Shown here: piece after piece, positions 8,299 to 28,766 of the stretch
How positions within the stretch are numbered: the stretch's first letter is position 1
How the letters are laid out: every line of letters begins with the position of its first letter
Source: a virus
Lineage: Duplodnaviria; Caudoviricetes
Virus record (IMG/VR): IMGVR_UViG_3300005611_000086
Coordinates: 1 to 37,122 of that record
DNA length: 37,122 nt
Reading direction: 5' to 3' (one strand)
Notes under the pieces: generated by a model
What the model saw: the letters and a program-made list of their open reading frames with translations, nothing else
What the model was told of the DNA's origin: nothing
Database searches by the model: none
Program-made: the position numbers and the translations under genes

Positions 8299-8486
8299 TG
8301 TACTGGGCAGTTTGGGAAGAGTGGGGCACCAACTATCGCAGATATGCGGAAGCTGAGACCCGCGAAGGGATTGATCAAAAGATCCTGACCAGAAGTGTGT
8401 ACCCGCCTAAGCGTCACACTATTCAAATTTTTGTAAAGTCTGAGGAGACAACCAATGAAACTATCACAAGCACAAACCATCGTTGA
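8295..8486 (+). CDS. Hypothetical protein
   Basis: 63 aa; coupled to both neighbours. Confidence 0.55.
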   Translation: MMYWAVWEEWGTNYRRYAEAETREGIDQKILTRSVYPPKRHTIQIFVKSEETTNETITSTNHR

Positions 8487-9492
8487 GAGTGCAATCAACT
8501 TCAACATGGATCTTTCAGATGGGCGTGATGCTCAATACATCGTTCCAATGCTGATGGGTGGCGCTGGCCTTGGTAAGACAACCATGGTCAAAGGCGCAAC
8601 TTCCCGTGTCGCAGAGCAGCGCGAGGTTCCAATGGAATGCCGCATTGTTTCTCTGGCGCAGTATGACCCGACAGAAATTGCGGGTTGGACAATCCCTTCA
8701 GAGGATCGCAGCCATATGGTGCGGATGCGCCCAGACTGGATGCCGACAGATGGCTATGGCGTCATCTTTTTGGATGAGCTACCGCAAGCCATTGTGGCGT
8801 GTCAGAACATTGCAGCGCAGATCACAAACGAGCGCCGTGTGGGGCCGCATCACTTGCCTGATGGCTGGGTTGTGGTTGCCGCTGGTAACCGCATGTCGGA
8901 CCGCGCTGGCACAAACCAGATGCCCTCTCACTTGAAGGACCGTATGATGTTCTTGGAGATCGAAGCGGATCTTGATGACACGATGTCATATTTCAACTCT
9001 GTGGGTGTTGACTTTCGCGTCAACTCTTTCCTGCGCTTTCGCCCTGAGTACCTGCACAAGTTCGACAGGGATGCCAATGCTTGCCCATCACCGCGTTCAT
9101 GGGAGCGTGTTGGCTCGATCCTATCATGGGGTCTTGATCCTGTGTGCCAGCTTGAAGCTATCGCTGGGCAGGTTGGTCGCGCAGCCGCTGCCGATTTCAA
9201 TGGGTTCTTAAAGATCCATGAAACGTGCCCTGATATCGACGCGCTGATTGCAGATCCCATGGGGTCCGATATCGCAGACGATCCAGCCGTTGCCTACGCA
9301 ATCACGGCAAACCTTGCGTTCCGCATGACCGACAAGAACGCGCATAACATCATCAAATATTTGATGCGCTTGCCACAGAAAGAGTTCGCTGTGTTCTGTG
9401 TCAAGGATGCGCTGAGCCGCAACAAAGACCTCAAGAAGGTCAAAGCGGTGCGCGATTGGATCATGACAGAAGGTCGTCACATGATCCTTTAA
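8455..9492 (+). CDS. MoxR-like AAA+ ATPase
   Basis: Walker A GGAGLGKT, Walker B IFLDE, VVAAGN sensor, LKDRM arginine-finger region, PSPRSWE; RBS GAGGAG. Confidence 0.92.
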   Translation: MKLSQAQTIVESAINFNMDLSDGRDAQYIVPMLMGGAGLGKTTMVKGATSRVAEQREVPMECRIVSLAQYDPTEIAGWTIPSEDRSHMVRMRPDWMPTDGYGVIFLDELPQAIVACQNIAAQITNERRVGPHHLPDGWVVVAAGNRMSDRAGTNQMPSHLKDRMMFLEIEADLDDTMSYFNSVGVDFRVNSFLRFRPEYLHKFDRDANACPSPRSWERVGSILSWGLDPVCQLEAIAGQVGRAAAADFNGFLKIHETCPDIDALIADPMGSDIADDPAVAYAITANLAFRMTDKNAHNIIKYLMRLPQKEFAVFCVKDALSRNKDLKKVKAVRDWIMTEGRHMIL

Positions 9493-9510
9493 AAGTTCAA
9501 TAGAACTTTT

Positions 9511-9534
9511 GTGGGTATGTCGAATCATACCCAC
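9511..9534. terminator. Intergenic hairpin
   Basis: GTGGGTATG-TCGAAT-CATACCCAC, a perfect 9-bp stem right after the palindrome copy at 9495-9506. Confidence 0.5.
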
Positions 9535-9573
9535 CACCAATTTTTGTAACCTTGAACTTTTGGGGGAATAATT

Positions 9574-9699
9574 ATGAAGTGCAATAAATGTGATGCGTCT
9601 GCCCTGTGCCACTATGAAAACAGATGGTGGTGCGCTGCGTGTTGGTTGAAATCATTTGGTCCAAGTGGTCCAAAAAATGTGAGGAAAAAGTATGAGTGA
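9574..9699 (+). CDS. Small zinc-finger protein (41 aa)
   Basis: Not in track: MKCNKCDASALCHYENRWWCAACWLKSF...; CxxC...CxxC; RBS GGGGGA. Confidence 0.65.
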   Translation: MKCNKCDASALCHYENRWWCAACWLKSFGPSGPKNVRKKYE

Positions 9700-9877
9700 T
9701 GCTGTTGTAATGAATATCTATGAAATCTTTGTTGAGGAGAGACAAGTCTTCTCTTTGAAGGTCGAAGCATTGACATCCGACGATGCTGCGAGAGAGGTCG
9801 AAGAAAGATATCGGGAAAATTATCTAAAGTTTAAACGCGATGCCACATACCATGATGGCAACGTAGAATTTCTGTAG
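9692..9877 (+). CDS. Hypothetical protein
   Basis: 61 aa; RBS GAGGA. Confidence 0.7.
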   Translation: MSDAVVMNIYEIFVEERQVFSLKVEALTSDDAAREVEERYRENYLKFKRDATYHDGNVEFL

Positions 9878-9889
9878 AGGAGAGTTCAG

Positions 9890-11020
9890 ATGGATGAACA
9901 AACAAAAGTATCGCGCTCTATCACGCGCCTTGTGATATCGCACCCGTTCTTTGGGTCAATGGCCCTGAGCCTCAAGATCGAGGCTGACGAAGACATCCCA
10001 ACCATGTGTACCGATGGCAAGTTCATCAAGTGGAACCCTGATTTTGTGGCGAACATGTCAGAAGAGGAGACCACTGGGGTGATGGCGCATGAGGTCATGC
10101 ATGTTGGCATGAAGCACAACCTGCGGCGCGGTGATCGTGACCCAGAGCGCTGGAACATTGCGTGTGACTATGTGATCAACCCTATCCTGATTGAGGCTGG
10201 GTTCTCGCTTCCCGCTGGTGGCTTGTATGACGAACAGTATGCAGACCTTCCCGCTGAGCGTGTCTATGACATGCTGCCAGAGGACGTGTCGCACCTGTCA
10301 CAGGCTGGTGGCATGGGCGGGGTGATGGACACCACCAAAGAGGGTGGACAGGCACTGTCTGAGGCTGAGGTTAAGCAGATGGAAGCCGACATCAACTCCA
10401 AGGTCATGATGGCTGCGAATGGTGCCAAGTCTGTTGGCAAGCTGCCAGCATCTATTGAGGCCTTGGTGCAGCGCATGAAGCGCAACCAGATTGACTGGGA
10501 AGAGAAGGTGCAGCGTTTCATGGGTGGTGATCAGCCTGATGACTACTCAATGCGCCGCCCTAATCGTAAGATGTTCGATCAGGTTGGGGTGCTTGGCCCC
10601 AGCATCGTGGGCACTGGTTGCGGTGATGTCCTTGTGTGGATGGACAGTAGCGGCTCTGTGGCTGATCGTGAAAGTGAGTTCTTCTTGGGTGGGTTGAATG
10701 CAATCAGCCGTGACGTGAAGCCCAAGTCAATCACAGTGATCACATGTGATGCTGAGATCCAGAGCGTCAAGCGTTATGAAGAGGGCGAAGAGATCACCCT
10801 GTTCAGCAACAAAGGTCGGGGCGGTACATGTGTGCAGCCTGTGTTCAACTACATTGAGCAGCACAATCTCAATGTGGATAACATGATCTGCTTCACCGAC
10901 ATGGGGATCTTTGACTACCCAGATCGTGCGCCAGACTACCCAGTCTTGTGGGTGTCTTCATATTCTCGCGGCAAACCAGCGCCGTTTGGCGAGACCATTT
11001 ACCTAAACACGGGGGATTAA
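9890..11020 (+). CDS. Metallopeptidase plus VWA domain protein (DUF2201-like)
   Basis: TMCTDG, HEVMH zincin motif, WNIACDYVIN, MIDAS DSSGS, GRGGT, FTDM; the usual partner of MoxR-like ATPases. Confidence 0.92.
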   Translation: MDEQTKVSRSITRLVISHPFFGSMALSLKIEADEDIPTMCTDGKFIKWNPDFVANMSEEETTGVMAHEVMHVGMKHNLRRGDRDPERWNIACDYVINPILIEAGFSLPAGGLYDEQYADLPAERVYDMLPEDVSHLSQAGGMGGVMDTTKEGGQALSEAEVKQMEADINSKVMMAANGAKSVGKLPASIEALVQRMKRNQIDWEEKVQRFMGGDQPDDYSMRRPNRKMFDQVGVLGPSIVGTGCGDVLVWMDSSGSVADRESEFFLGGLNAISRDVKPKSITVITCDAEIQSVKRYEEGEEITLFSNKGRGGTCVQPVFNYIEQHNLNVDNMICFTDMGIFDYPDRAPDYPVLWVSSYSRGKPAPFGETIYLNTGD

Positions 11021-20285: not shown

Positions 20286-20317
20286 AAACCCTCTCAGAGA
20301 GATCTGAGGGGGTTTTT
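20286..20317. terminator. Bidirectional intrinsic terminator between convergent operons
   Basis: AAACCCTCTCAG-AGAGAT-CTGAGGGGGTTTTT. Confidence 0.7.
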
Positions 20318-23300
20318 ATATTCCTTGAGCAATCAGTATTCCCTGACGGGTTATCAGCTTTCTTTGCTCAACCAGTTGCTTGACGATGCGATCCTTTTCA
20401 TCTTGCGGCAAACGTGAATCATTCACTGCCGTAATCTGCTGAGAGATCTTCCGTCTTGCTGATTCGATCTTCCTGATTTGTGGGGCAATCCTAAGCTCTG
20501 CCTCGAACCTAGATATGGCACTGTTGATGCGGTCCACGTCACCGCGCTCAGCCGCCTTCTTGTACTCAGCCGTTGCCCTGTTTACCTGATCACGAACCTC
20601 AATGTATTGAGACACGTCATCCCTGCTGGATACGCTGCGTAAAACCCTACGCATGAACGGGATCTCAGTGGCAATATCTTCTGCGGATTCTGCGGCAGCT
20701 ATTCTTGCTGGTGCTTCAGCGGTACGCTGCACAAACCTACCAGCGCCACCAGTGATGTAGTCGAACCAGAACTCCAAAGAGTTTGGTGACCAATCAATCC
20801 ACCCACTCAGCGTCTCAGTCCCACCTGTCAACTCATTAAGGGCCTGTGTTATGCCAACCGCCGTTGGAGAGGTGTTGTTCCAGTACAGGCTGCTTTGTGA
20901 TGCCACCTGATTTGGGAATGCCTTCTTAACAATATCTCTGCCAGAGAAGTCTGTGTTGGTTCCGTACAATGAGATGAAGGGATCAAACACAGTGGGTGCT
21001 GCGAAGTTCAAGAAGCTTTCAGTGCCACCCAGCGGGTTGAATATCTCAAGGGTTGTGCGCCCAATGGATGCTCCGATCTCTGATGGATCTGATCTACCTT
21101 GAGCCATCTTGGCAAAGTTGCGCCCGACATTGTGGAATGCGTTCATGCCGTATGGCATTGGTATAGAAACATATCCACGTCCAAAGGGGTCCATCACGTC
21201 TGGCAGCATGAACACCATGTTGTGTTCCAGAATGTAGTCTGGGATCTTGTCGTACTGCTTTACCCCATCCTCATCTTCGTCTGACATCATTGAGTTGATT
21301 ATGTCCTGCGTAAAGCCAACAGCTATAACGCCACCCATGATGTTGCGAACCTTCTTTGAGCGAGCCAGTGATCTCAACAGGAAGAAGCTGCCCTGCAAGG
21401 ACGCATTGTAGAACAGGTACAATGAGTTCAAGAATGCCTTGTTGTCACCACCCTTGCCAAAGTCTACGGTCACACTCCTTGCGGCCTGTGCTGCCCTCTC
21501 CTTAGTGACGCCACGACTAACCAAAGCGTCATAAGTGCTAACACGAATGGCGTTTTCCACCACAAGGTTTGAATTATCCATGAACTCTAAGAGCTTCCTA
21601 CCCTTGGCCTTCATCAACCCAAGCTTACCGCTTGCATCAGAGATGTCTGACAATGTGGATTGAAGATCAGATATCTGATCCTGTAATGTGGTCATTGGGT
21701 TGGCAGCACTCGCACCACCGTATGCTCTGAACTCCTTGTATTTCTTTGCCCAGTCAGAGGAATCATCCTTGTTTAGGATGGATCTCTTCAAGCCTTTTGC
21801 TGCCTTCAATACATTTCTAATCGTGTCTTTTCTCAGGCCATCCATTTCAAACTCACTGACCTGTATGCCAGCGGCTTGAACGTCACGAATAAAGTTGGAG
21901 ATAAAGAACTCTGGGTTCCAAGATGTGTTAATGTTTGACAGGTATCTGTTTACCTTAGCCAAACCTCTGGTGATTGTGGCAGCATTGCCAGCATCCCAAA
22001 TGTTTTCTCCATTGAATGCACCCGCAAGATTGTTGTCATAGAACTGAAGGACTTTTTCTTTTCCATCTTCTTTTACAATGGCGATTGATGGGTCATCACG
22101 ATAGGTTCTCGTTGGCTTGATGACAACCGCACCGTTCTGCATCACACGGGCTGATGGTGGTTGATCTAGGATCTCAGCATATCCAGACATGCCTTGAGGG
22201 TTTGATCTAATCAGATCGAGCATAGACTTACCAACCTTGTTACGCTCACCGCGAACAATAGAGTTTGTGTTTTGTAGGATGGTGCTTGCTAGGATATCTC
22301 TGCCGTATGATCTACGACCCAAGGCCCTTTGATCTTCTCTGCCCATAGCGCCATATCTGGATGGCTTGCCGCTGCCGTAGACGCCTTCTTGGTCAACTTC
22401 AAAGTGACCTTTGAGGGGCACATAGAAATCAAAGTTACTATCTTCCATGTCGCCTATGTTCATGTCACTTGACTGAAGACCAGCCGCAACGCGAACAGCG
22501 TTAGTGTCATCAACGATGGCACGAACAGCATCCTCAGCCTGACGCAAAGCTATTTTGTTTTGCGGATCAAGGCTATCAAACCAGTTGAGTATTGCATCAG
22601 CCTCTGCATCAGTCATGCCTGAGCCAGCATCATTGGTGGGGTCCACCGTTCTGATGTATGCGTTTCTCTCCTTAGCATGTTTTGCGTAGAGATAAGTATC
22701 TACGGCGGATAAAGCTTTTGACTTTGTTCCCTCAAACGTGAACTCAGCAAGGCCTTTACCACCACCAGAGTTAGCATTTGACAGTGCCTTTAACTGTTCA
22801 ACCTGCTGCTCTGTGATGTTCATGTTTTTGACAGCATCAGTGGCAGCTTTGTAAATTGTTTCCTTGCGCTCAGTAATCTTACTGCCAGCAATACCTTCAC
22901 TCAGTTGCTGCTTCAGATACGGGTCCATGCTGTCAGCGATCTTGTACTGAGGATTTATTTCCTTCAGTTCTTTGATCATTCTGCCAACAGGAATGAAGCT
23001 GTCCTGTGCTTTCTGAATAAATAGATCCGCTCTCTTCTGTGCCTTTGTCTTGTCGGTGAAGGGCACCAAGCGCAGAGCTTTACCAACCCAGTCAGCGATA
23101 TCAGTGTAGCGTGTCACACGATCCGCTTGCATCGCGTCGAGACCCGTGCCGCTTACAGTGTTCAGTGCGCTCAGTTTGATCTGGCTGTTGCGGATCTTCT
23201 TGCGATCCTTCTTGTCCATAACTGGGAAGAATGTCTTAACGTAATACGGACCCTTTCCGCTGTTACGCTTGCCACGCTCAAGGACAAGGCGCAGGGGTGG

Positions 23301-26300
23301 GCTTTTAGCCATACGGTTATCGAACCACTCCAAAACCAAGTTGCCTCCTGACGGGTACGCTACAACGCTCTCACCGTCCTGATAGCCTTGGCTCTTCCAT
23401 CTGTGCAGTGTGTCGTAGATGGCTTTCTCTACTCGCTTGTATCCTGAGTTCTCTATAAGCTCCTTGTCGTGCAGCCTTTGCTGTATGTGATAGAGGCCAC
23501 CACCATTATCAAACTGGTCATTGCTTCCTTCAGTAAGAAGGACAGGGATAACCTCACCATCAGTCTCCTGTATGCCGCCATATATAATGTCAGTCAGAGT
23601 TCCAGTTCGTTTGACTGGAGTTCTGATTGCTTTGTATGGATCAATAGGTATTTGAGAAAGCTTTTGTGGTGGAAGTTCATTTGAACTTTCTACACCTTCC
23701 ATCGTTGACAGATCTACGTCTGCCTCTGTGATGAATGGCGCTGCCTCTAGTGCTAGTTTTCTAGGGGCGAAGAAGTCTCCCTCTGCAATCGTTGGCTTAA
23801 CCGCATCAACGCTTCCGCTACCTGATCCATCTCCTTCTCGTTGAGAGATGACACCAGCGAGTCTTCCTCGCTCTGCTGCGGGGAGTGAATTTTTGATTTT
23901 GTCATCGCCTATACCTTTGTTTTTCAGGATGTTCAGGGCACCGTCAGCGTAATCGTTGTCATCACCACGGCCCTTACGGACACCACCAGCTTCAAACAAA
24001 CGCTTCTCAGCATACCACATAAGGGCTTGGAAGTCAGCATTAGTTATATCAACACCAGCTTCATCCTTGAGGATCTGCCTTGCACGGTTGGCAACCTCAC
24101 GCATTGCAGTCCTGTCCTGTGCGCTGCGAGGATCTTCTTGTAGTGTTGGGATCAGCTTCTTCTGATATGTTTCAGCGGCCCTCAGAAAGTCTGTCTTTGA
24201 CGGACGTGATGCAGCAGCAAGTTCCTTTACTGTTGCGGCGTCTCGACCAACAGGAGTTTTACTCTTGTTAAGACTGAACTCATACTGTCCAGATGTAAGT
24301 AAATCCTCAACAGTATCTTTGTATGCCTTGGTGTAATAATCTTTATTCCAGATCTTACCAATCACAGGAGCTATCAGAGGTATGTCTGTCTTATCCATTG
24401 TGGATATGTTCAGTTTTCTTTGAGCTTCAAACAGAATGTTTCTATCCATGTCTGTCAGGGGCTGGTCTACTTCAGTAATAAAGTTCCAAACCTTATCAAG
24501 GTTCTGCTCTATCAGCTCGTCTGCATATTTTACTGTGGGGTTACCAGTGATGCGGTTGGCAAAGCGCATCCACCACCTGTCCATGGTTAGAGGATCGTAA
24601 TTACCTCTAAGGTTTTGGTAGAAGCCGTTGCCAATCTTTGGACCTAGTATATACGCCACAGACACCATTGTATCTGCCTCTTCAGCCCCACTTGCTTGGA
24701 ACTCTTTGGGCAAATCTTTAACTCTATTAGCCCCAAGGACATTGAGCATTGTTGTGTTAAGGTCTTTCTTTGGCATCTGCATGGTTAGCAAAGCCTCAAT
24801 GTCATTTGATGACATGCCCTTACGGCTCAGTGTATTCCAGAACTCAAAGGCAGATAGCATAGACCCACCTTGAGCGCCTGATCCTTTAACGGGGAAGGTG
24901 CCATCATCACTAGCCTTCCAAGCGTCATACTGCTCAGATGCAAACCTGTAGTTGTCTATAACTGACAAACCGTTTGACGTGATGGCAGTTGCAAAATCAA
25001 AGGCATGTTCTGCTGCTGGATCATACTCAGAGTTTGGAGAACCGTCAGGCCTCTCCGGTGAGACCTCTGGATATACAGGAAATAAAATACGCTTAGCCAG
25101 CTTGAGTGTGGAGTCATACCAACCAAGAGCATCACTGCCAGATATCAATGCTGCCTCAGCTTCAGCCGCCATGATCCTTGCTGCGTCTTGCTTGTCACGC
25201 TCTGAATTTATTATGTCCAAAGGCGGTACGTTACGCAGGCCAAGAAGTTTCTCAGCAAAGCTAACTAATGTCTCTGAGCCTTCTTTCTTTTTAAATTGAG
25301 GCTGTCCTGTTTTTGGATTAAGGTAATCAAGTATACTCGCATCACGTTGGGCTGGTGTCAGTGGCACCATTGATCTCTTAATGCCAAGAGCCTCAGTGTC
25401 TATGTCACCAAAGGTTGACTCTATCTGATCTGATATGATAGATGTCTCAGTAGAAGGAGTTATGTCAATGGCAGAAGAAGCTTTTGCTCTAGTGGAAGAC
25501 GGAACTTCCCGTGCAGTAATATTTAAATCAGACGGTACATCATCAGTGCGAACACTGGATGGATCTATCAAGCCAGTGGGCACTTTGGTTGGAGAAGAGA
25601 TACCAACCGCAGATGATCTACGGGCATTCCGCGCAGCTTCCAGCATGGAACTCTCTGCGCTTCTCCAAGAAGACTCAGCCTCCTGACGGGAGATACCTGT
25701 CCGATCTAGGGCAGCTTGGAAAGCAGCATCATAATTACGATAGCTCTTTGCGATAGATGCAAAGTATTCTGCCTGTTGATCCTGTAGTTCCTGTTGAGTT
25801 TTATTTCTCCACTCTTCAAAGATCAGGTGGCCCCGTGCTTTCTTCTCTACCTCAAGCTCTCTTAGTGGCAGATACCACTCAACCAACTGACCGTTAGGCA
25901 TACGGATATCAAACGCAATGATGCGCCATCCCCATTCCTTTGGCTCAAACAATTTGTTTGTGTCGATCTTAACTAGGCTTATGCCTTCCTTGAGAAGCTC
26001 ATCGAAGATAGCTGGAACGTCTCTGAAGTCATCAATAACAGTCTTGAACCTGTAAGAATCACGGATGTGTGATGCGTCATGCCAAGGCTTGTTCGCTAAG
26101 ATGGATGGTCTGCTCGCCTTCTGAGTTACCTTTGACAGGTCTTTGATGTTATCACCTGACTTGGTGCCAAACTTCTCATCAATCCTTTTGATAAGACGTT
26201 TAACAAGAGGCACATTCTCTTTCGTTAGCTTTTCTATCTCTGCCCGTATCTGATCATTGGGGGCATTGGTGTTGATAGGCATCCTGATATTCTCAGGCGC

Positions 26301-28766
26301 AACACTATCCTCCTCAACAACTGCATCAATAGGTATAGCTGACTGTTTCGCAGTAGTTACTTCTGTGCGTGATGTCGGGGTCTGTGTGACTGTGGTTACA
26401 GGAGCGCGATCAGCAACACTGCCAGCACCAATCCCACTGAATATAGCACCAACATTATTAAAGCCATTGTCAACATGTGCCCCTACTATGGACCTAAAGA
26501 AATCACCTATCCGCTTGAACAAAGGTCTGGATGTTCCAACATTTTTTAATCTGCCAGCAGTGTAGTCACGATACATTTCTGCAATCGCTTCCTCTTCAAC
26601 AGCAGATAGCCTACCTTTGTCTCCCTTCCGACCGACAAGCTCACCGTTAAGCCTACCAGCGCGGTCCAAGTAAGAGTAAGATCTCTTCTTTCCTTCTCGA
26701 TTTATAAACTTTGTTTTCTTGGCAGCTTTCTTTAGAAGGTTTATTTCCTTGGGCGTGAAGACATTCATATCCACAAGTGCATGAACTGCCTCATGGTTCA
26801 TCACCTCAGCAACGCTGTTAGTGTAATCAGCGTCAGACAGTGAAGGATCGTATACACCAAGAGCCAAGGTAATTGCTTTCTCCTCGCTCATTGGATCGAA
26901 CTGACCCTCGACCAAACTATCTTGACTGCCAATAACCTTCTGGCCCTTGAGGCCAACACGCTTGAGACCCATCTTATCAAGACGTTCTCTAAGGTTATTA
27001 ATCACAGCCTCTTCACGCTGTGTATACTCAGGCTTCTTCTCGACTTGCTCTTTGCTAAGGCCATCGAAGATGGCTCTGGTTTCGCCTCTCTTCTCAGCCG
27101 CCTGAAGCTGTGGGCCTATCTCTGCCCTCAACTGCTCAGGGGTAACTCTACCGGGTATAGCTGAGATTCTCGTAGCAGCTTGAACTTTATATTCATCTGG
27201 CAAGGCAACCAACTTCTGTTGGTTCGATTCGAGCCTATCATTTAATTTGTTCAATTGAACTTTTTTACTATCAAGTTTTGCCTTTACCTCTTCAGGCTTT
27301 ACAGCGTTCCCCTTTGTATCTTTCCCCATCTGGGTTGCATACCTGAAATCCAATTCAAGCACTGGTATTTCTTTGGCGAGTTCGCTTGCTTTTTTTGCGG
27401 CAGTATTGCTGTCACGTCTGATTGCGTTAAGCTTGTTCTCTGCCATCTTTGATGGGGGGGTTACTGTATACTTATCAACCTTCTTTCCTCTTGGAGTTAT
27501 AGATATAACCCCTTGTGACGCGAGAGAATCTCTCGCTTGCTTGATCAATTTATCTGTCTGCTTCTGAGTTTCACCTGAGAGACCAGCTTTTTGTAGGGCA
27601 ATCCTAGCCTTTGGAAATCTTAGCTCACCCTCAACGCGCATAGATGAAAGCAATATATCAGCCGCACGATTAACAACTTGATCTTCTGGAGTGGCTGTCG
27701 GTGCTGGTAATGCTAACTGAACCTGTGGCTCAGGGGCTGATAGTATTTCATCAACCTCTTTAACCTCTTGCTCTGTTTGTTCCAGTCCATATGCAAGCCT
27801 TGTTCTTGCCACCTCTCCCAGCTTGGTTAGGTCTTCATCCAGTTCCTTGGATACTTTATCGGTATCAACGGTGGGAGATACCAAGCCAGCAGCAGAACCT
27901 ATTGCTCCACCGACTACTGCTCCAGAAACAAATGCTTCTTCGTATTCTTTTAAGGCATCTTCATTAAACAATTCTTGTCCAGCTTGTGCCCTGTTTACCA
28001 TGCTTTGAGAAACTTCTTGAAGACCCTCAAGCCCACCAGCTTGCCCACCTTCCATCAAAACTTTTCTGGCACGGCCCGCATCAACTGGCTTAATAAACTT
28101 ACCAATCACAAAGTAATCAATTAAGAACTCAGAGGCTGCATTGATGGCAGTTGCCCCACCCGCTCTTAGAATGCTGGTATCCATACCAGCTTCCTCTTGT
28201 TTATTAATTGCTTCAGCAAACATCTGAGGCAACGCTTTGACTGTTGTGTATCCAACACCCGCCGCCCTAGTAATACCTGCTCCTAATGGGCCAAATGGAA
28301 GACCAACTGCCGTGGCTCCAGCTTGTATGGCCGTATCCTTAGCCTCGCTACCCAACGCCTCACCAGCAAAGCTTGCTGCTGATGACAGATCATTTACATC
28401 GTCATATCTTACAGATGGATCTTCAGCTTCAAGTCTTCTTAACTCTGCCAGTGCATTTCTTTGCTGCTCTTGTGCTGCCTCAGAATCCAAGCCAAACATT
28501 TTGCCAACAAATGTATCTGCAAGAACCTCTTTTGTTTTACCTTGAGCAAGTTGATTTTCATAAGGCTCTCTTTCAAGACCCCGCATGAAGGCAGTTTTAT
28601 CTTCCTCTTCTGGCTCAGGTGGTTGAACTGCAACAGGTGCTTGTTGACGCTTCGATAGAAGGAAGTCGTTTATCTGTTGCTGTTCATTCTCAGTGGGTTC
28701 TGTTCCAGAGATATTTACTGAGTAGTCAATTCCTGTCTGAGGATCTTTGACAAATATTACAGACAT
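20316..28766 (-). CDS. Giant polyvalent (probably virion-ejected) protein, 2816 aa: zincin peptidase, RelA/SpoT-like, HhH/Ogg2-like glycosylase, PBECR-like nuclease, LPD38
   Basis: HEAVH (aa 658) + EEEAIAE; IRDSYRF/GWR/LVEWY/GHLIFEEWR; LGWYD/GPKIGNGFYQNL.G/TMDRW/QALMWY; GGGLYHI...H...VKTFF; C-terminal YLFYNASLQG/IPMPYG. It is the last gene of the late operon. Confidence 0.85.
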   Translation of the reverse strand: MSVIFVKDPQTGIDYSVNISGTEPTENEQQQINDFLLSKRQQAPVAVQPPEPEEEDKTAFMRGLEREPYENQLAQGKTKEVLADTFVGKMFGLDSEAAQEQQRNALAELRRLEAEDPSVRYDDVNDLSSAASFAGEALGSEAKDTAIQAGATAVGLPFGPLGAGITRAAGVGYTTVKALPQMFAEAINKQEEAGMDTSILRAGGATAINAASEFLIDYFVIGKFIKPVDAGRARKVLMEGGQAGGLEGLQEVSQSMVNRAQAGQELFNEDALKEYEEAFVSGAVVGGAIGSAAGLVSPTVDTDKVSKELDEDLTKLGEVARTRLAYGLEQTEQEVKEVDEILSAPEPQVQLALPAPTATPEDQVVNRAADILLSSMRVEGELRFPKARIALQKAGLSGETQKQTDKLIKQARDSLASQGVISITPRGKKVDKYTVTPPSKMAENKLNAIRRDSNTAAKKASELAKEIPVLELDFRYATQMGKDTKGNAVKPEEVKAKLDSKKVQLNKLNDRLESNQQKLVALPDEYKVQAATRISAIPGRVTPEQLRAEIGPQLQAAEKRGETRAIFDGLSKEQVEKKPEYTQREEAVINNLRERLDKMGLKRVGLKGQKVIGSQDSLVEGQFDPMSEEKAITLALGVYDPSLSDADYTNSVAEVMNHEAVHALVDMNVFTPKEINLLKKAAKKTKFINREGKKRSYSYLDRAGRLNGELVGRKGDKGRLSAVEEEAIAEMYRDYTAGRLKNVGTSRPLFKRIGDFFRSIVGAHVDNGFNNVGAIFSGIGAGSVADRAPVTTVTQTPTSRTEVTTAKQSAIPIDAVVEEDSVAPENIRMPINTNAPNDQIRAEIEKLTKENVPLVKRLIKRIDEKFGTKSGDNIKDLSKVTQKASRPSILANKPWHDASHIRDSYRFKTVIDDFRDVPAIFDELLKEGISLVKIDTNKLFEPKEWGWRIIAFDIRMPNGQLVEWYLPLRELEVEKKARGHLIFEEWRNKTQQELQDQQAEYFASIAKSYRNYDAAFQAALDRTGISRQEAESSWRSAESSMLEAARNARRSSAVGISSPTKVPTGLIDPSSVRTDDVPSDLNITAREVPSSTRAKASSAIDITPSTETSIISDQIESTFGDIDTEALGIKRSMVPLTPAQRDASILDYLNPKTGQPQFKKKEGSETLVSFAEKLLGLRNVPPLDIINSERDKQDAARIMAAEAEAALISGSDALGWYDSTLKLAKRILFPVYPEVSPERPDGSPNSEYDPAAEHAFDFATAITSNGLSVIDNYRFASEQYDAWKASDDGTFPVKGSGAQGGSMLSAFEFWNTLSRKGMSSNDIEALLTMQMPKKDLNTTMLNVLGANRVKDLPKEFQASGAEEADTMVSVAYILGPKIGNGFYQNLRGNYDPLTMDRWWMRFANRITGNPTVKYADELIEQNLDKVWNFITEVDQPLTDMDRNILFEAQRKLNISTMDKTDIPLIAPVIGKIWNKDYYTKAYKDTVEDLLTSGQYEFSLNKSKTPVGRDAATVKELAAASRPSKTDFLRAAETYQKKLIPTLQEDPRSAQDRTAMREVANRARQILKDEAGVDITNADFQALMWYAEKRLFEAGGVRKGRGDDNDYADGALNILKNKGIGDDKIKNSLPAAERGRLAGVISQREGDGSGSGSVDAVKPTIAEGDFFAPRKLALEAAPFITEADVDLSTMEGVESSNELPPQKLSQIPIDPYKAIRTPVKRTGTLTDIIYGGIQETDGEVIPVLLTEGSNDQFDNGGGLYHIQQRLHDKELIENSGYKRVEKAIYDTLHRWKSQGYQDGESVVAYPSGGNLVLEWFDNRMAKSPPLRLVLERGKRNSGKGPYYVKTFFPVMDKKDRKKIRNSQIKLSALNTVSGTGLDAMQADRVTRYTDIADWVGKALRLVPFTDKTKAQKRADLFIQKAQDSFIPVGRMIKELKEINPQYKIADSMDPYLKQQLSEGIAGSKITERKETIYKAATDAVKNMNITEQQVEQLKALSNANSGGGKGLAEFTFEGTKSKALSAVDTYLYAKHAKERNAYIRTVDPTNDAGSGMTDAEADAILNWFDSLDPQNKIALRQAEDAVRAIVDDTNAVRVAAGLQSSDMNIGDMEDSNFDFYVPLKGHFEVDQEGVYGSGKPSRYGAMGREDQRALGRRSYGRDILASTILQNTNSIVRGERNKVGKSMLDLIRSNPQGMSGYAEILDQPPSARVMQNGAVVIKPTRTYRDDPSIAIVKEDGKEKVLQFYDNNLAGAFNGENIWDAGNAATITRGLAKVNRYLSNINTSWNPEFFISNFIRDVQAAGIQVSEFEMDGLRKDTIRNVLKAAKGLKRSILNKDDSSDWAKKYKEFRAYGGASAANPMTTLQDQISDLQSTLSDISDASGKLGLMKAKGRKLLEFMDNSNLVVENAIRVSTYDALVSRGVTKERAAQAARSVTVDFGKGGDNKAFLNSLYLFYNASLQGSFFLLRSLARSKKVRNIMGGVIAVGFTQDIINSMMSDEDEDGVKQYDKIPDYILEHNMVFMLPDVMDPFGRGYVSIPMPYGMNAFHNVGRNFAKMAQGRSDPSEIGASIGRTTLEIFNPLGGTESFLNFAAPTVFDPFISLYGTNTDFSGRDIVKKAFPNQVASQSSLYWNNTSPTAVGITQALNELTGGTETLSGWIDWSPNSLEFWFDYITGGAGRFVQRTAEAPARIAAAESAEDIATEIPFMRRVLRSVSSRDDVSQYIEVRDQVNRATAEYKKAAERGDVDRINSAISRFEAELRIAPQIRKIESARRKISQQITAVNDSRLPQDEKDRIVKQLVEQRKLITRQGILIAQGI
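23753..23905 (-). CDS. Candidate nested (+1 frame) gene inside the giant ORF, 50 aa
   Basis: MTKSKIHSPQQSEEDSLVSSLNEKEMDQVAEALMRLSQRLQRETSSPLEN*; AAAGG 8 nt upstream; amphipathic acidic helix; sits in the linker right after the glycosylase-like domain. Confidence 0.5.
   Translation of the reverse strand: MTKSKIHSPQQSEEDSLVSSLNEKEMDQVAEALMRLSQRLQRETSSPLEN
25468..25686 (+). CDS. Candidate antisense nested gene inside the giant ORF, 72 aa (putative antitoxin of the RelA/SpoT-like domain)
   Basis: SD AAGGAG (25454-25459) 8 nt before the ATG; extended -10 TGATATGAT (25431-25439); product MAEEAFALVEDGTSRAVIFKSDGTSSVRTLDGSIKPVGTLVGEEIPTADDLRAFRAASSMELSALLQEDSAS. Confidence 0.6.
   Translation: MAEEAFALVEDGTSRAVIFKSDGTSSVRTLDGSIKPVGTLVGEEIPTADDLRAFRAASSMELSALLQEDSAS

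Follow-up and report, generated by a model that had tools for sequence, protein, structure and literature searches.

An entire gene for a predicted immunity protein appears to be nested, in antisense orientation, inside the gene of the phage protein that it would neutralise. The stretch analysed here (hereafter the window) is the whole 37,122-base virus record IMGVR_UViG_3300005611_000086 of IMG/VR (Duplodnaviria; Caudoviricetes), which is about 62% complete. On its minus strand, an open reading frame (ORF) at positions 20316..28766 encodes a giant phage polyvalent protein of 2,816 amino acid residues. Residues 843-1039 of this protein (about 25650..26240, minus strand) are predicted to form a divergent RelA/SpoT-type domain with the fold of a small alarmone synthetase (SAS). 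The 72-residue ORF in question lies on the plus strand at 25468..25686, and its last 12 or so codons overlap the final helix of the synthetase domain. I interpret the domain and the small protein as a toxin-immunity pair resembling Tas1 and Tis1, and the probability of this whole reading is put at roughly 70%. As for its parts, it is very probable that the small ORF is a real translated gene and, judging from the models, quite likely that its product binds and inhibits the synthetase domain, while (p)ppApp is slightly favoured, by analogy, as the product of the enzyme.

Does the small protein occur where nothing overlaps it? Homologous loci were collected (167); with the window, 165 of 168 were anchored, one was too short downstream, and collapse at 90% identity left 71. 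These 71 comprise 14 loci with a free-standing synthetase, 56 in which the domain is part of a longer ORF, and one (L150) that was set aside because its sense frame contains stops. Two of the 14 free-standing loci are too short to evaluate. In all of the other 12, it was found that an ordinary, non-overlapping homologue of the small protein lies beside the synthetase (one match is weak, E-value 0.32), as detected with a search profile built solely from nested proteins. The homologue is divergent and upstream in 11 loci, 4 of which have it doubled, and convergent in the remaining one, L166, where it lies 4 nucleotides (nt) from the stop codon of the synthetase. Profile-profile comparison of the nested and the free alignments gave a probability of 97.7% (E-value 1.6e-12). 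For one free gene (L121), translation of the complementary strand gives a Ser-rich sequence, similar in this respect to the linker of the giant protein. No other evidence speaks as strongly as these free-standing neighbours for a real small protein that goes with the synthetase, and for a linker that is the shadow of this protein. All free-standing loci with a named source are contigs of metagenome-assembled genomes (MAGs) of Obscuribacterales or 'Cyanobacteria bacterium'.

A homologous antisense ORF is present in all 56 non-redundant long-protein loci; 50 of them built the profile, and the six others score 15-86 bits. An earlier note on this DNA had described the ORF correctly, with AAGGAG (25454..25459, plus strand) as a Shine-Dalgarno (SD) sequence 8 nt before the ATG. 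This start proved to be conserved. An ATG, an SD match of at least 5 nt and 55 open codons occur together at the antisense-start position in 42 of the 56 loci. Thirty same-frame control windows have this combination in 0-2 of 32-56 loci, and the neighbouring window has it in 4 of 55. Inside the giant gene, the 72-residue ORF is the sole plus-strand ORF of at least 45 residues with an SD match of at least 5 nt. The antisense protein is conserved down to about 40% identity, and its family is old. Upstream of the start, the extended -10-like element TGATATGAT, which had been noticed before, is found at 25431..25439 (plus strand) and is a candidate promoter of the antisense gene. In the homologues, -10-like hexamers and the pattern TTG-17-TAnnnT are enriched upstream of the antisense start. 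A TTG placed 16-18 nt before a -10 occurs in 21 of 50 homologues, as against 0-4 when 32 control offsets are used; the window itself fails this rule, and close relatives of it make up many of the 21. Most of the giant gene is covered by contigs from four RNA runs of a single study, which carry neither strand nor level and are uninformative on antisense expression.

The linker of the giant protein opposite this unit (residues 1039-1118; 25415..25650, minus strand) is Ser/Thr-rich and poor in Tyr and His. Judging from its composition and profile, it reads as the shadow of the antisense gene plus its SD and promoter. A profile of the sense shadow scores at least 10 bits in 103 of the 131 segments that follow the domain and in none of 130 upstream controls (150 best representatives, of which 19 have tails that are too short; some of the proteins overlap the training loci). 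The sense sequences of 20 relatives with 74-87% identity in the synthetase are 25-72% identical to the window across the overlap; just past the promoter, this value drops to 12-23% in 19 of the 20. Thus, the domain and the antisense unit behave as one module.

Selection was assessed on both strands. The base before a sense His or Gln codon is usually silent for the giant protein, and a C at this position makes a Trp codon in the antisense frame. This base is C in 81 of 84 cases in the overlap, compared with 129 of 521 in the synthetase domain as a control. The 84 cases come from 45 of the 56 loci, and the sole stop codon made at this position is a terminal stop. Transversions that are silent for the giant protein and not for the antisense protein were seen at 15 of 162 sites, compared with 68 of 200 doubly silent sites (p = 2e-8; 17 disjoint pairs); in the synthetase, taken as a control, the two classes do not differ in this way (134 of 367 vs 90 of 220, p = 0.29). 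The converse class, which alters the sense protein and is silent for the antisense protein, counts 24 of 151 in the overlap against the same neutral sites (p = 1e-4) and 14 of 499 in the synthetase. The sense frame is therefore far more relaxed in the overlap than in the synthetase, yet it stays below neutral. These substitution patterns indicate that both frames are constrained in the overlap, the antisense frame clearly so, and it was too simple to suppose, as had been done, that the coding constraint switches strands here. A conserved start, a ribosome-binding site and purifying selection in its own frame were all found for the nested gene.

The small protein was modelled by AlphaFold2 (AF2) as a compact four-strand sheet with a C-terminal helix, with a predicted local distance difference test score (pLDDT) of 85.9. 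In a Foldseek comparison with 350,542 PDB chains, the best match was 6ox6_B, which is Tis1, the partner that confers immunity to the (p)ppApp toxin Tas1 (probability 0.98, template modelling (TM) score 0.56, E-value 0.12; the runner-up has an E-value of 0.7). VIA-align also ranks Tis1 first (Z 4.2 vs 3.0 for the next), with 62 of 72 residues aligned at 3.6 Å and 18-19% identity. No match to pZFD was found in the fold comparisons, and a BFVD fold search gave nothing at E-value ≤0.001. As for sequence families, Pfam and PHROGs have none for the 72-residue protein of the window, no Pfam family is common to more than 3 of 61 members, the ESM Atlas gave no usable match, and only 5 database proteins matched the window version. 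Among 50,697 records of isolated phages, tblastn found no match for the synthetase or the small protein.

The predicted complex of the synthetase domain and the small protein scores 0.80, compared with 0.00 for the best of three controls; the mark applied to this score is reached by 116 of 157 solved pairs and by 2 of 215 mismatched pairs. The runs agree in at least 77% of contacts, and the pLDDT of the partner is at least 89. The predicted interface comprises G-loop residues 99-104 and helices 141-168, which is the acceptor-site side. The cognate inhibitor proposed in the earlier note came through every computational test that was run, namely start and SD, antisense selection, free pairs, the Tis1 match, weak as it is, and the complex, as predicted.

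The RelA/SpoT homologue (RSH) motifs that were first noticed in the giant protein are indeed there, but the domain is larger than the segment proposed at that time, and extends over the range given above. Its AF2 model (66-sequence alignment, pLDDT 90.6) has RelQ and RelP as the top Foldseek matches (E-value about 1e-6, TM-score 0.52-0.66), and its profile aligns to Bacillus subtilis YwaC/RelP (E-value 0.006); both results point to the SAS fold. CapRel and Tas1 rank 28th and 29th in the same search (E-value 9e-5 for Tas1). All 66 homologues keep K33, K41, R44, D61, E121 and H138 unchanged, and this conservation favours an active enzyme. From the spacing and the RelP alignment, D61 (syn2), E121 (syn4) and the basic ATP-phosphate residues of syn1, K33, K41 and R44, would be equivalent to D90, E145, K66, K74 and R77 of FaRel2. 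The putative catalytic Asp and Glu, both invariant in 66 of 66, are encoded at 26060 and 25880, and the G-loop GWR at about 25923-25931 (all minus strand). Pfam RelA_SpoT (PF04607) does not match the window domain and gives only hits below the cut-off in 6 of the 66 members, with a best E-value of 0.011. The family comprises 516 clusters at E-value ≤0.001 among 50%-identity representatives. Its matches in the ESM Atlas are mostly unnamed clusters, in one of which RelA_SpoT is found in 17%. The divergent synthetase may define a new subfamily of alarmone synthetases.

Tis1-like domains are described as neutralising (pp)pApp synthetases by blocking their acceptor site, whereas pZFD blocks the donor site of the tRNA-targeting toxic SASs (toxSASs) (PMC11782079, Dominguez-Molina et al.). 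This difference tips the product towards (p)ppApp.

The host gene itself is of the polyvalent type. Pfam LPD38, listed by Iyer et al. as specific to phage polyvalent proteins (PMC5512222), matches residues 2504-2704 of the giant protein (E-value 1e-38), in line with a large multi-domain architecture, and the C-terminal 800 residues match PHROG 14770, 616 and 10691. The gene lies amid minus-strand genes of the structural module, and one neighbour has a weak match to 'DNA ejection protein' (E-value 5e-4). Other genes of the window include those for terminase, portal, primase-helicase, Sak and PD-(D/E)XK in a Pfam scan. Among 25 of the 150 listed homologues that were scanned for carrier domains, ddrB-ParB was found in 7, ART-PolyVal in 4 (2 below the cut-off), InPase in 2 and LPD38 in 2. 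Virion packaging and delivery have been proposed for this class of proteins (PMC5512222).

The following mechanism is proposed. The giant polyvalent protein would be packaged in the virion and injected at infection, and its synthetase domain would pyrophosphorylate adenosine nucleotides, throttling the host just after entry. The host sigma-70 polymerase would read the antisense gene from its own promoter. At a later stage of infection the inhibitor would cap the enzyme, chiefly in the period when newly made giant protein accumulates before packaging. The nesting may solve a layout problem, since there is no room for an immunity gene downstream of a toxin that lies mid-way along a protein of 1,000-7,000 residues. 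A convergent cassette of synthetase, immunity gene, SD and promoter could also be shuffled between polyvalent proteins with the antidote kept.

Several points weigh against the toxin-immunity reading. The homologous loci are related; the counts given above are not independent trials, and the p-values overstate independence. The window protein lacks the conserved Trp of its family. A sigma-70 promoter scan called no plus-strand site at the antisense ORF, which qualifies the claim of an extended -10 promoter, and the window's own promoter fails canonical spacing. Its -35-like hexamer TTGACT (25415..25420, plus strand) is 13 nt from TATGAT and 18 nt from TAGATG, neither being canonical. With TTGACT 13 nt from TATGAT and no call by the scan, what remains of the window's promoter is the extended -10. 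The Tis1 match is weak in absolute terms, as the Foldseek E-value shows, and the VIA-align Z lies in that tool's range of common arrangements; nor did a sequence search against the PDB find any similarity to Tis1. The weak scores gain weight because the top match inhibits exactly such an enzyme class. The 6OX6 complex was already solved, and the pass of the predicted complex may partly reflect likeness to it. The packaging and injection of the giant protein are deduced from gene context and the literature.

The product of the enzyme is a further weak point. According to PMC12226406, the signatures of (p)ppGpp synthetases are AVR in syn2, SxH in syn3 and IR in syn4, and those of Apk2 are RYT, GxN and YH. 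The present domain has RFK, I-x-A and LP instead of AVR, SxH and IR. Its RFK is Apk-like at the Arg alone (Arg in 65 of 66), and the GxN and YH of the Apk1/Apk2 signatures are absent. In addition, the G-loop aromatic residue is Trp in 63 of 66, replacing Tyr, and the first syn1 Arg is replaced by Asn or Ser in the family. The missing GxN and YH, the Trp in the G-loop and the Asn or Ser in syn1 make the product uncertain, and the model is nearer to the (p)ppGpp makers RelQ and RelP than to Tas1.

One alternative is that the small protein is real and binds, while the enzyme is no lethal (p)ppApp toxin but retunes the host through (p)ppGpp, some other product or tRNA modification, with the small protein as a regulator or off-switch. 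It draws on the housekeeping nature of RelQ and RelP, the best structural matches, and on the absence of the Apk2 signatures in syn3 and syn4; moreover, the proposal of Iyer et al. for domains of this kind was an alarmone-like response of the host (PMC5512222). However, the guanine-reading SxH and IR of (p)ppGpp synthetases are absent too, syn2 keeps the Apk-like Arg, and a dedicated, at times duplicated Tis1-like partner is the pattern of toxic (p)ppApp synthetases. Thus, this alternative is considered unlikely.

It is still less probable that the locus is a defence or superinfection module instead of a weapon used at entry, in which the complex stays neutralised in the infected or carrier cell until a rival phage displaces the small protein and abortive infection follows, as in toxSAS systems. 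The toxSAS modules do act in anti-phage defence (PMC11782079), and the free-standing pairs lie in bacterial MAG contigs amid non-phage genes. In contrast, the phage copies sit inside polyvalent proteins of the structural module. No integrase was found among the 26 window proteins scanned from this incomplete record. The window terminase is 51-59% identical to those of the phages 023Pt_psg01, HTVC027P, DSL-LC04 and HTVC023P, and its closest isolated relatives by this protein include the pelagiphages HTVC023P and HTVC027P, which are lytic.

Could the small ORF be open by arithmetic and untranslated? The third codon positions of the antisense ORF and the giant frame coincide, stops in this antisense frame arise only opposite sense Tyr, His and Gln, and sense Ser maps to antisense Asp, Glu or Leu. 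Openness and acidity are therefore expected opposite any Ser-rich linker, and the natural look of the frame, which had been taken as a sign of coding, carries little; what is special is its conserved start signal. The open frame was rejected as evidence, since 7 of 85 stop-free runs in the same frame across the giant gene reach 72 codons, and the case had to rest on other evidence. The residual constraint on the sense frame in the overlap also suits a mere shadow of a conserved Ser/Thr-rich linker. However, such a shadow would explain neither the conserved ATG and SD nor the Trp-codon bias at sense-silent sites, nor the free homologues that have no long gene opposite, nor the Tis1-like predicted fold and docking, and it is very improbable. 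That the antisense unit acts mainly as an RNA, damping the giant gene by convergent transcription with the peptide incidental, would suit the promoter-like elements upstream of its start but is hardly credible given the selection at the amino-acid level and the 11 divergent free-standing loci, where the RNA of the homologue would not pair with the synthetase mRNA.

If the toxin-immunity pair is real, which frame came first? The small protein had been called an overprinted antitoxin, and this direction is likely backwards, as it belongs to a family with free-standing members. The Ser/Thr-rich linker of the giant protein is more likely the newer, read-through frame, because the small protein family has free-standing members and an immunity-type fold. 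A host ORF may have come to read through a convergent toxin-immunity cassette like that of L166. In a quick tree, the free forms are one clade (Shimodaira-Hasegawa-like approximate likelihood ratio test, 95) inside the nested diversity; the tree was midpoint-rooted, without a clade test. Loss of nesting is as possible as gain, and no order of events is claimed.

The free-standing loci show further variation. Four of them (L124, L161, L162, L163) have tandem diverged immunity-like copies upstream of the synthetase, which may be compared with the immunity arrays of polymorphic toxins, and in L162 and L163 the second copy is apparently fused to a longer ORF. Diverged synthetase-partner loci also occur two or three to a MAG (Obscuribacterales or 'Cyanobacteria bacterium') on separate contigs (L154/L156, L159/L164, L161/L162/L163). 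These contigs often share small hypothetical neighbour genes, perhaps as parts of a repeated mobile element. Among the nested loci, the window belongs to a subclade without the conserved Trp, together with L003, L011, L012, L024, L033, L078, L083, L084, L089 and L102; this subclade has a short insertion, which the model places at the interface.

What is already known is the chemistry of Tas1-Tis1 and Apk2-IapK/BcTis1, and the presence of RelA/SpoT domains in polyvalent proteins. The present pair resembles Tas1 (Apk1)-Tis1 of Pseudomonas aeruginosa (PDB 6OX6) in its RSH synthetase fold, in a partner of 72-76 residues whose best fold match, though weak, is Tis1, and in the predicted binding on the acceptor-site side. 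Tas1 is the C-terminal domain of a PAAR type VI secretion system effector with a separate co-expressed tis1, whereas the present domain lies inside a phage polyvalent protein, with its partner gene nested in antisense. MuF-Apk2 with IapK/BcTis1, and Aph1, are likewise phage-borne (temperate phages), with a synthetase and a Tis1-like inhibitor (PMC10083569, PMC12226406), but the Apk2 immunity genes are separate genes after the toxin gene. Pfam found neither a MuF nor a PAAR carrier in the window giant or the 25 scanned homologues, and no hydrolase gene was seen. The RelA/SpoT domains of phage polyvalent proteins in PMC5512222 share the embedding with LPD38, ddrB-ParB, InPase and ART-PolyVal, whereas the present clade falls below Pfam RelA_SpoT detection. 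In the main text of that paper, the terms 'antisense', 'opposite strand' and 'overlapping' are absent, and no passage on cognate immunity was found. In type II toxin-antitoxin systems of the toxSAS class (FaRel/AT2faRel, FaRel2/ATfaRel2, CapRel), a small structured antitoxin also controls a synthetase, and AT2faRel uses a Tis1-like domain (PMC11782079). These pairs are operonic or fused, in contrast to an opposite-strand partner within the host ORF.

Antisense overlaps occur in double-stranded DNA phages (PMC7017920). The gene olg1, which lies in antisense within the toxin gene tle3, is of recent origin and almost confined to one species, and the text on it does not use the word 'immunity' (PMC8850804); the alternate-frame insertions of OAFI are synthetic (bioRxiv 10.1101/2024.11.07.622342). 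Unlike these, the inner gene here belongs to an old family and is predicted to act on the product of its host gene. A cognate immunity gene nested in antisense inside a polyvalent toxin gene was not found in a full-text literature search, with supplements and most subscription papers outside its scope. The architecture would surprise a specialist. It is an unusual natural overlap, in that an old folded protein with a predictable target would be nested in antisense across a 516-cluster family.

The nested gene would answer the question of how a phage can place a toxic domain within a giant virion protein while sparing the producing cell an early death. Since gene callers drop such ORFs, annotation may systematically miss the immunity genes of polyvalent proteins; they could be searched for by the shadow signature. 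A tentative and rather doubtful generalisation is that polyvalent proteins are built of portable self-protecting cassettes, that a host-promoter antidote serves as a timer turning off the injected toxin and that low-complexity Ser/Thr-rich linkers behind other effector domains hide immunity genes. In 214 kb of host ORF from the 56 loci, 20 other antisense ORFs of 50-200 residues with ATG and SD were found, two of which extend the same gene. None of the rest is recurrent or family-like by eye, so that generality beyond the synthetase domain is not shown.

Other segments of the giant protein also attract attention. An HExxH motif, HEAVH, is encoded at 26781-26795 (minus strand; residues 658-662) and has no Pfam match. 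From the motif, it may belong to a zincin-like protease of the kind proposed to cut polyvalent proteins into units. Two more segments look globular and have no Pfam match, namely residues 1720-1860 or so (about 23150-23600, minus strand) and residues 1150-1600 or so (23950-25300, minus strand). They resemble a BECR-type nuclease (GLYHI at residue 1757) and a domain of glycosylase type, and neither is followed by an antisense ORF with a strong SD.

The ends of the host ORFs are similar in many loci. Among the 18 nested loci whose ORF ends at most 300 codons from the anchor, 16 share a similar terminal helix with a Cys near the C-terminus (L013-L017, L046, L051, L052, L055, L070, L098, L109, L111, L131, L133 and L152). 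The helix is possibly a packaging or anchoring signal, which would explain why the sense frame needs to read through the antisense gene. In L151, a contig binned as Sansalvadorimonas sp., the synthetase domain is found at 99% identity, which may hint at a host or result from mis-binning. In the early region of the window (8455-11020, plus strand), a gene for an AAA ATPase adjoins a gene for a DUF2201 metallopeptidase-VWA protein.

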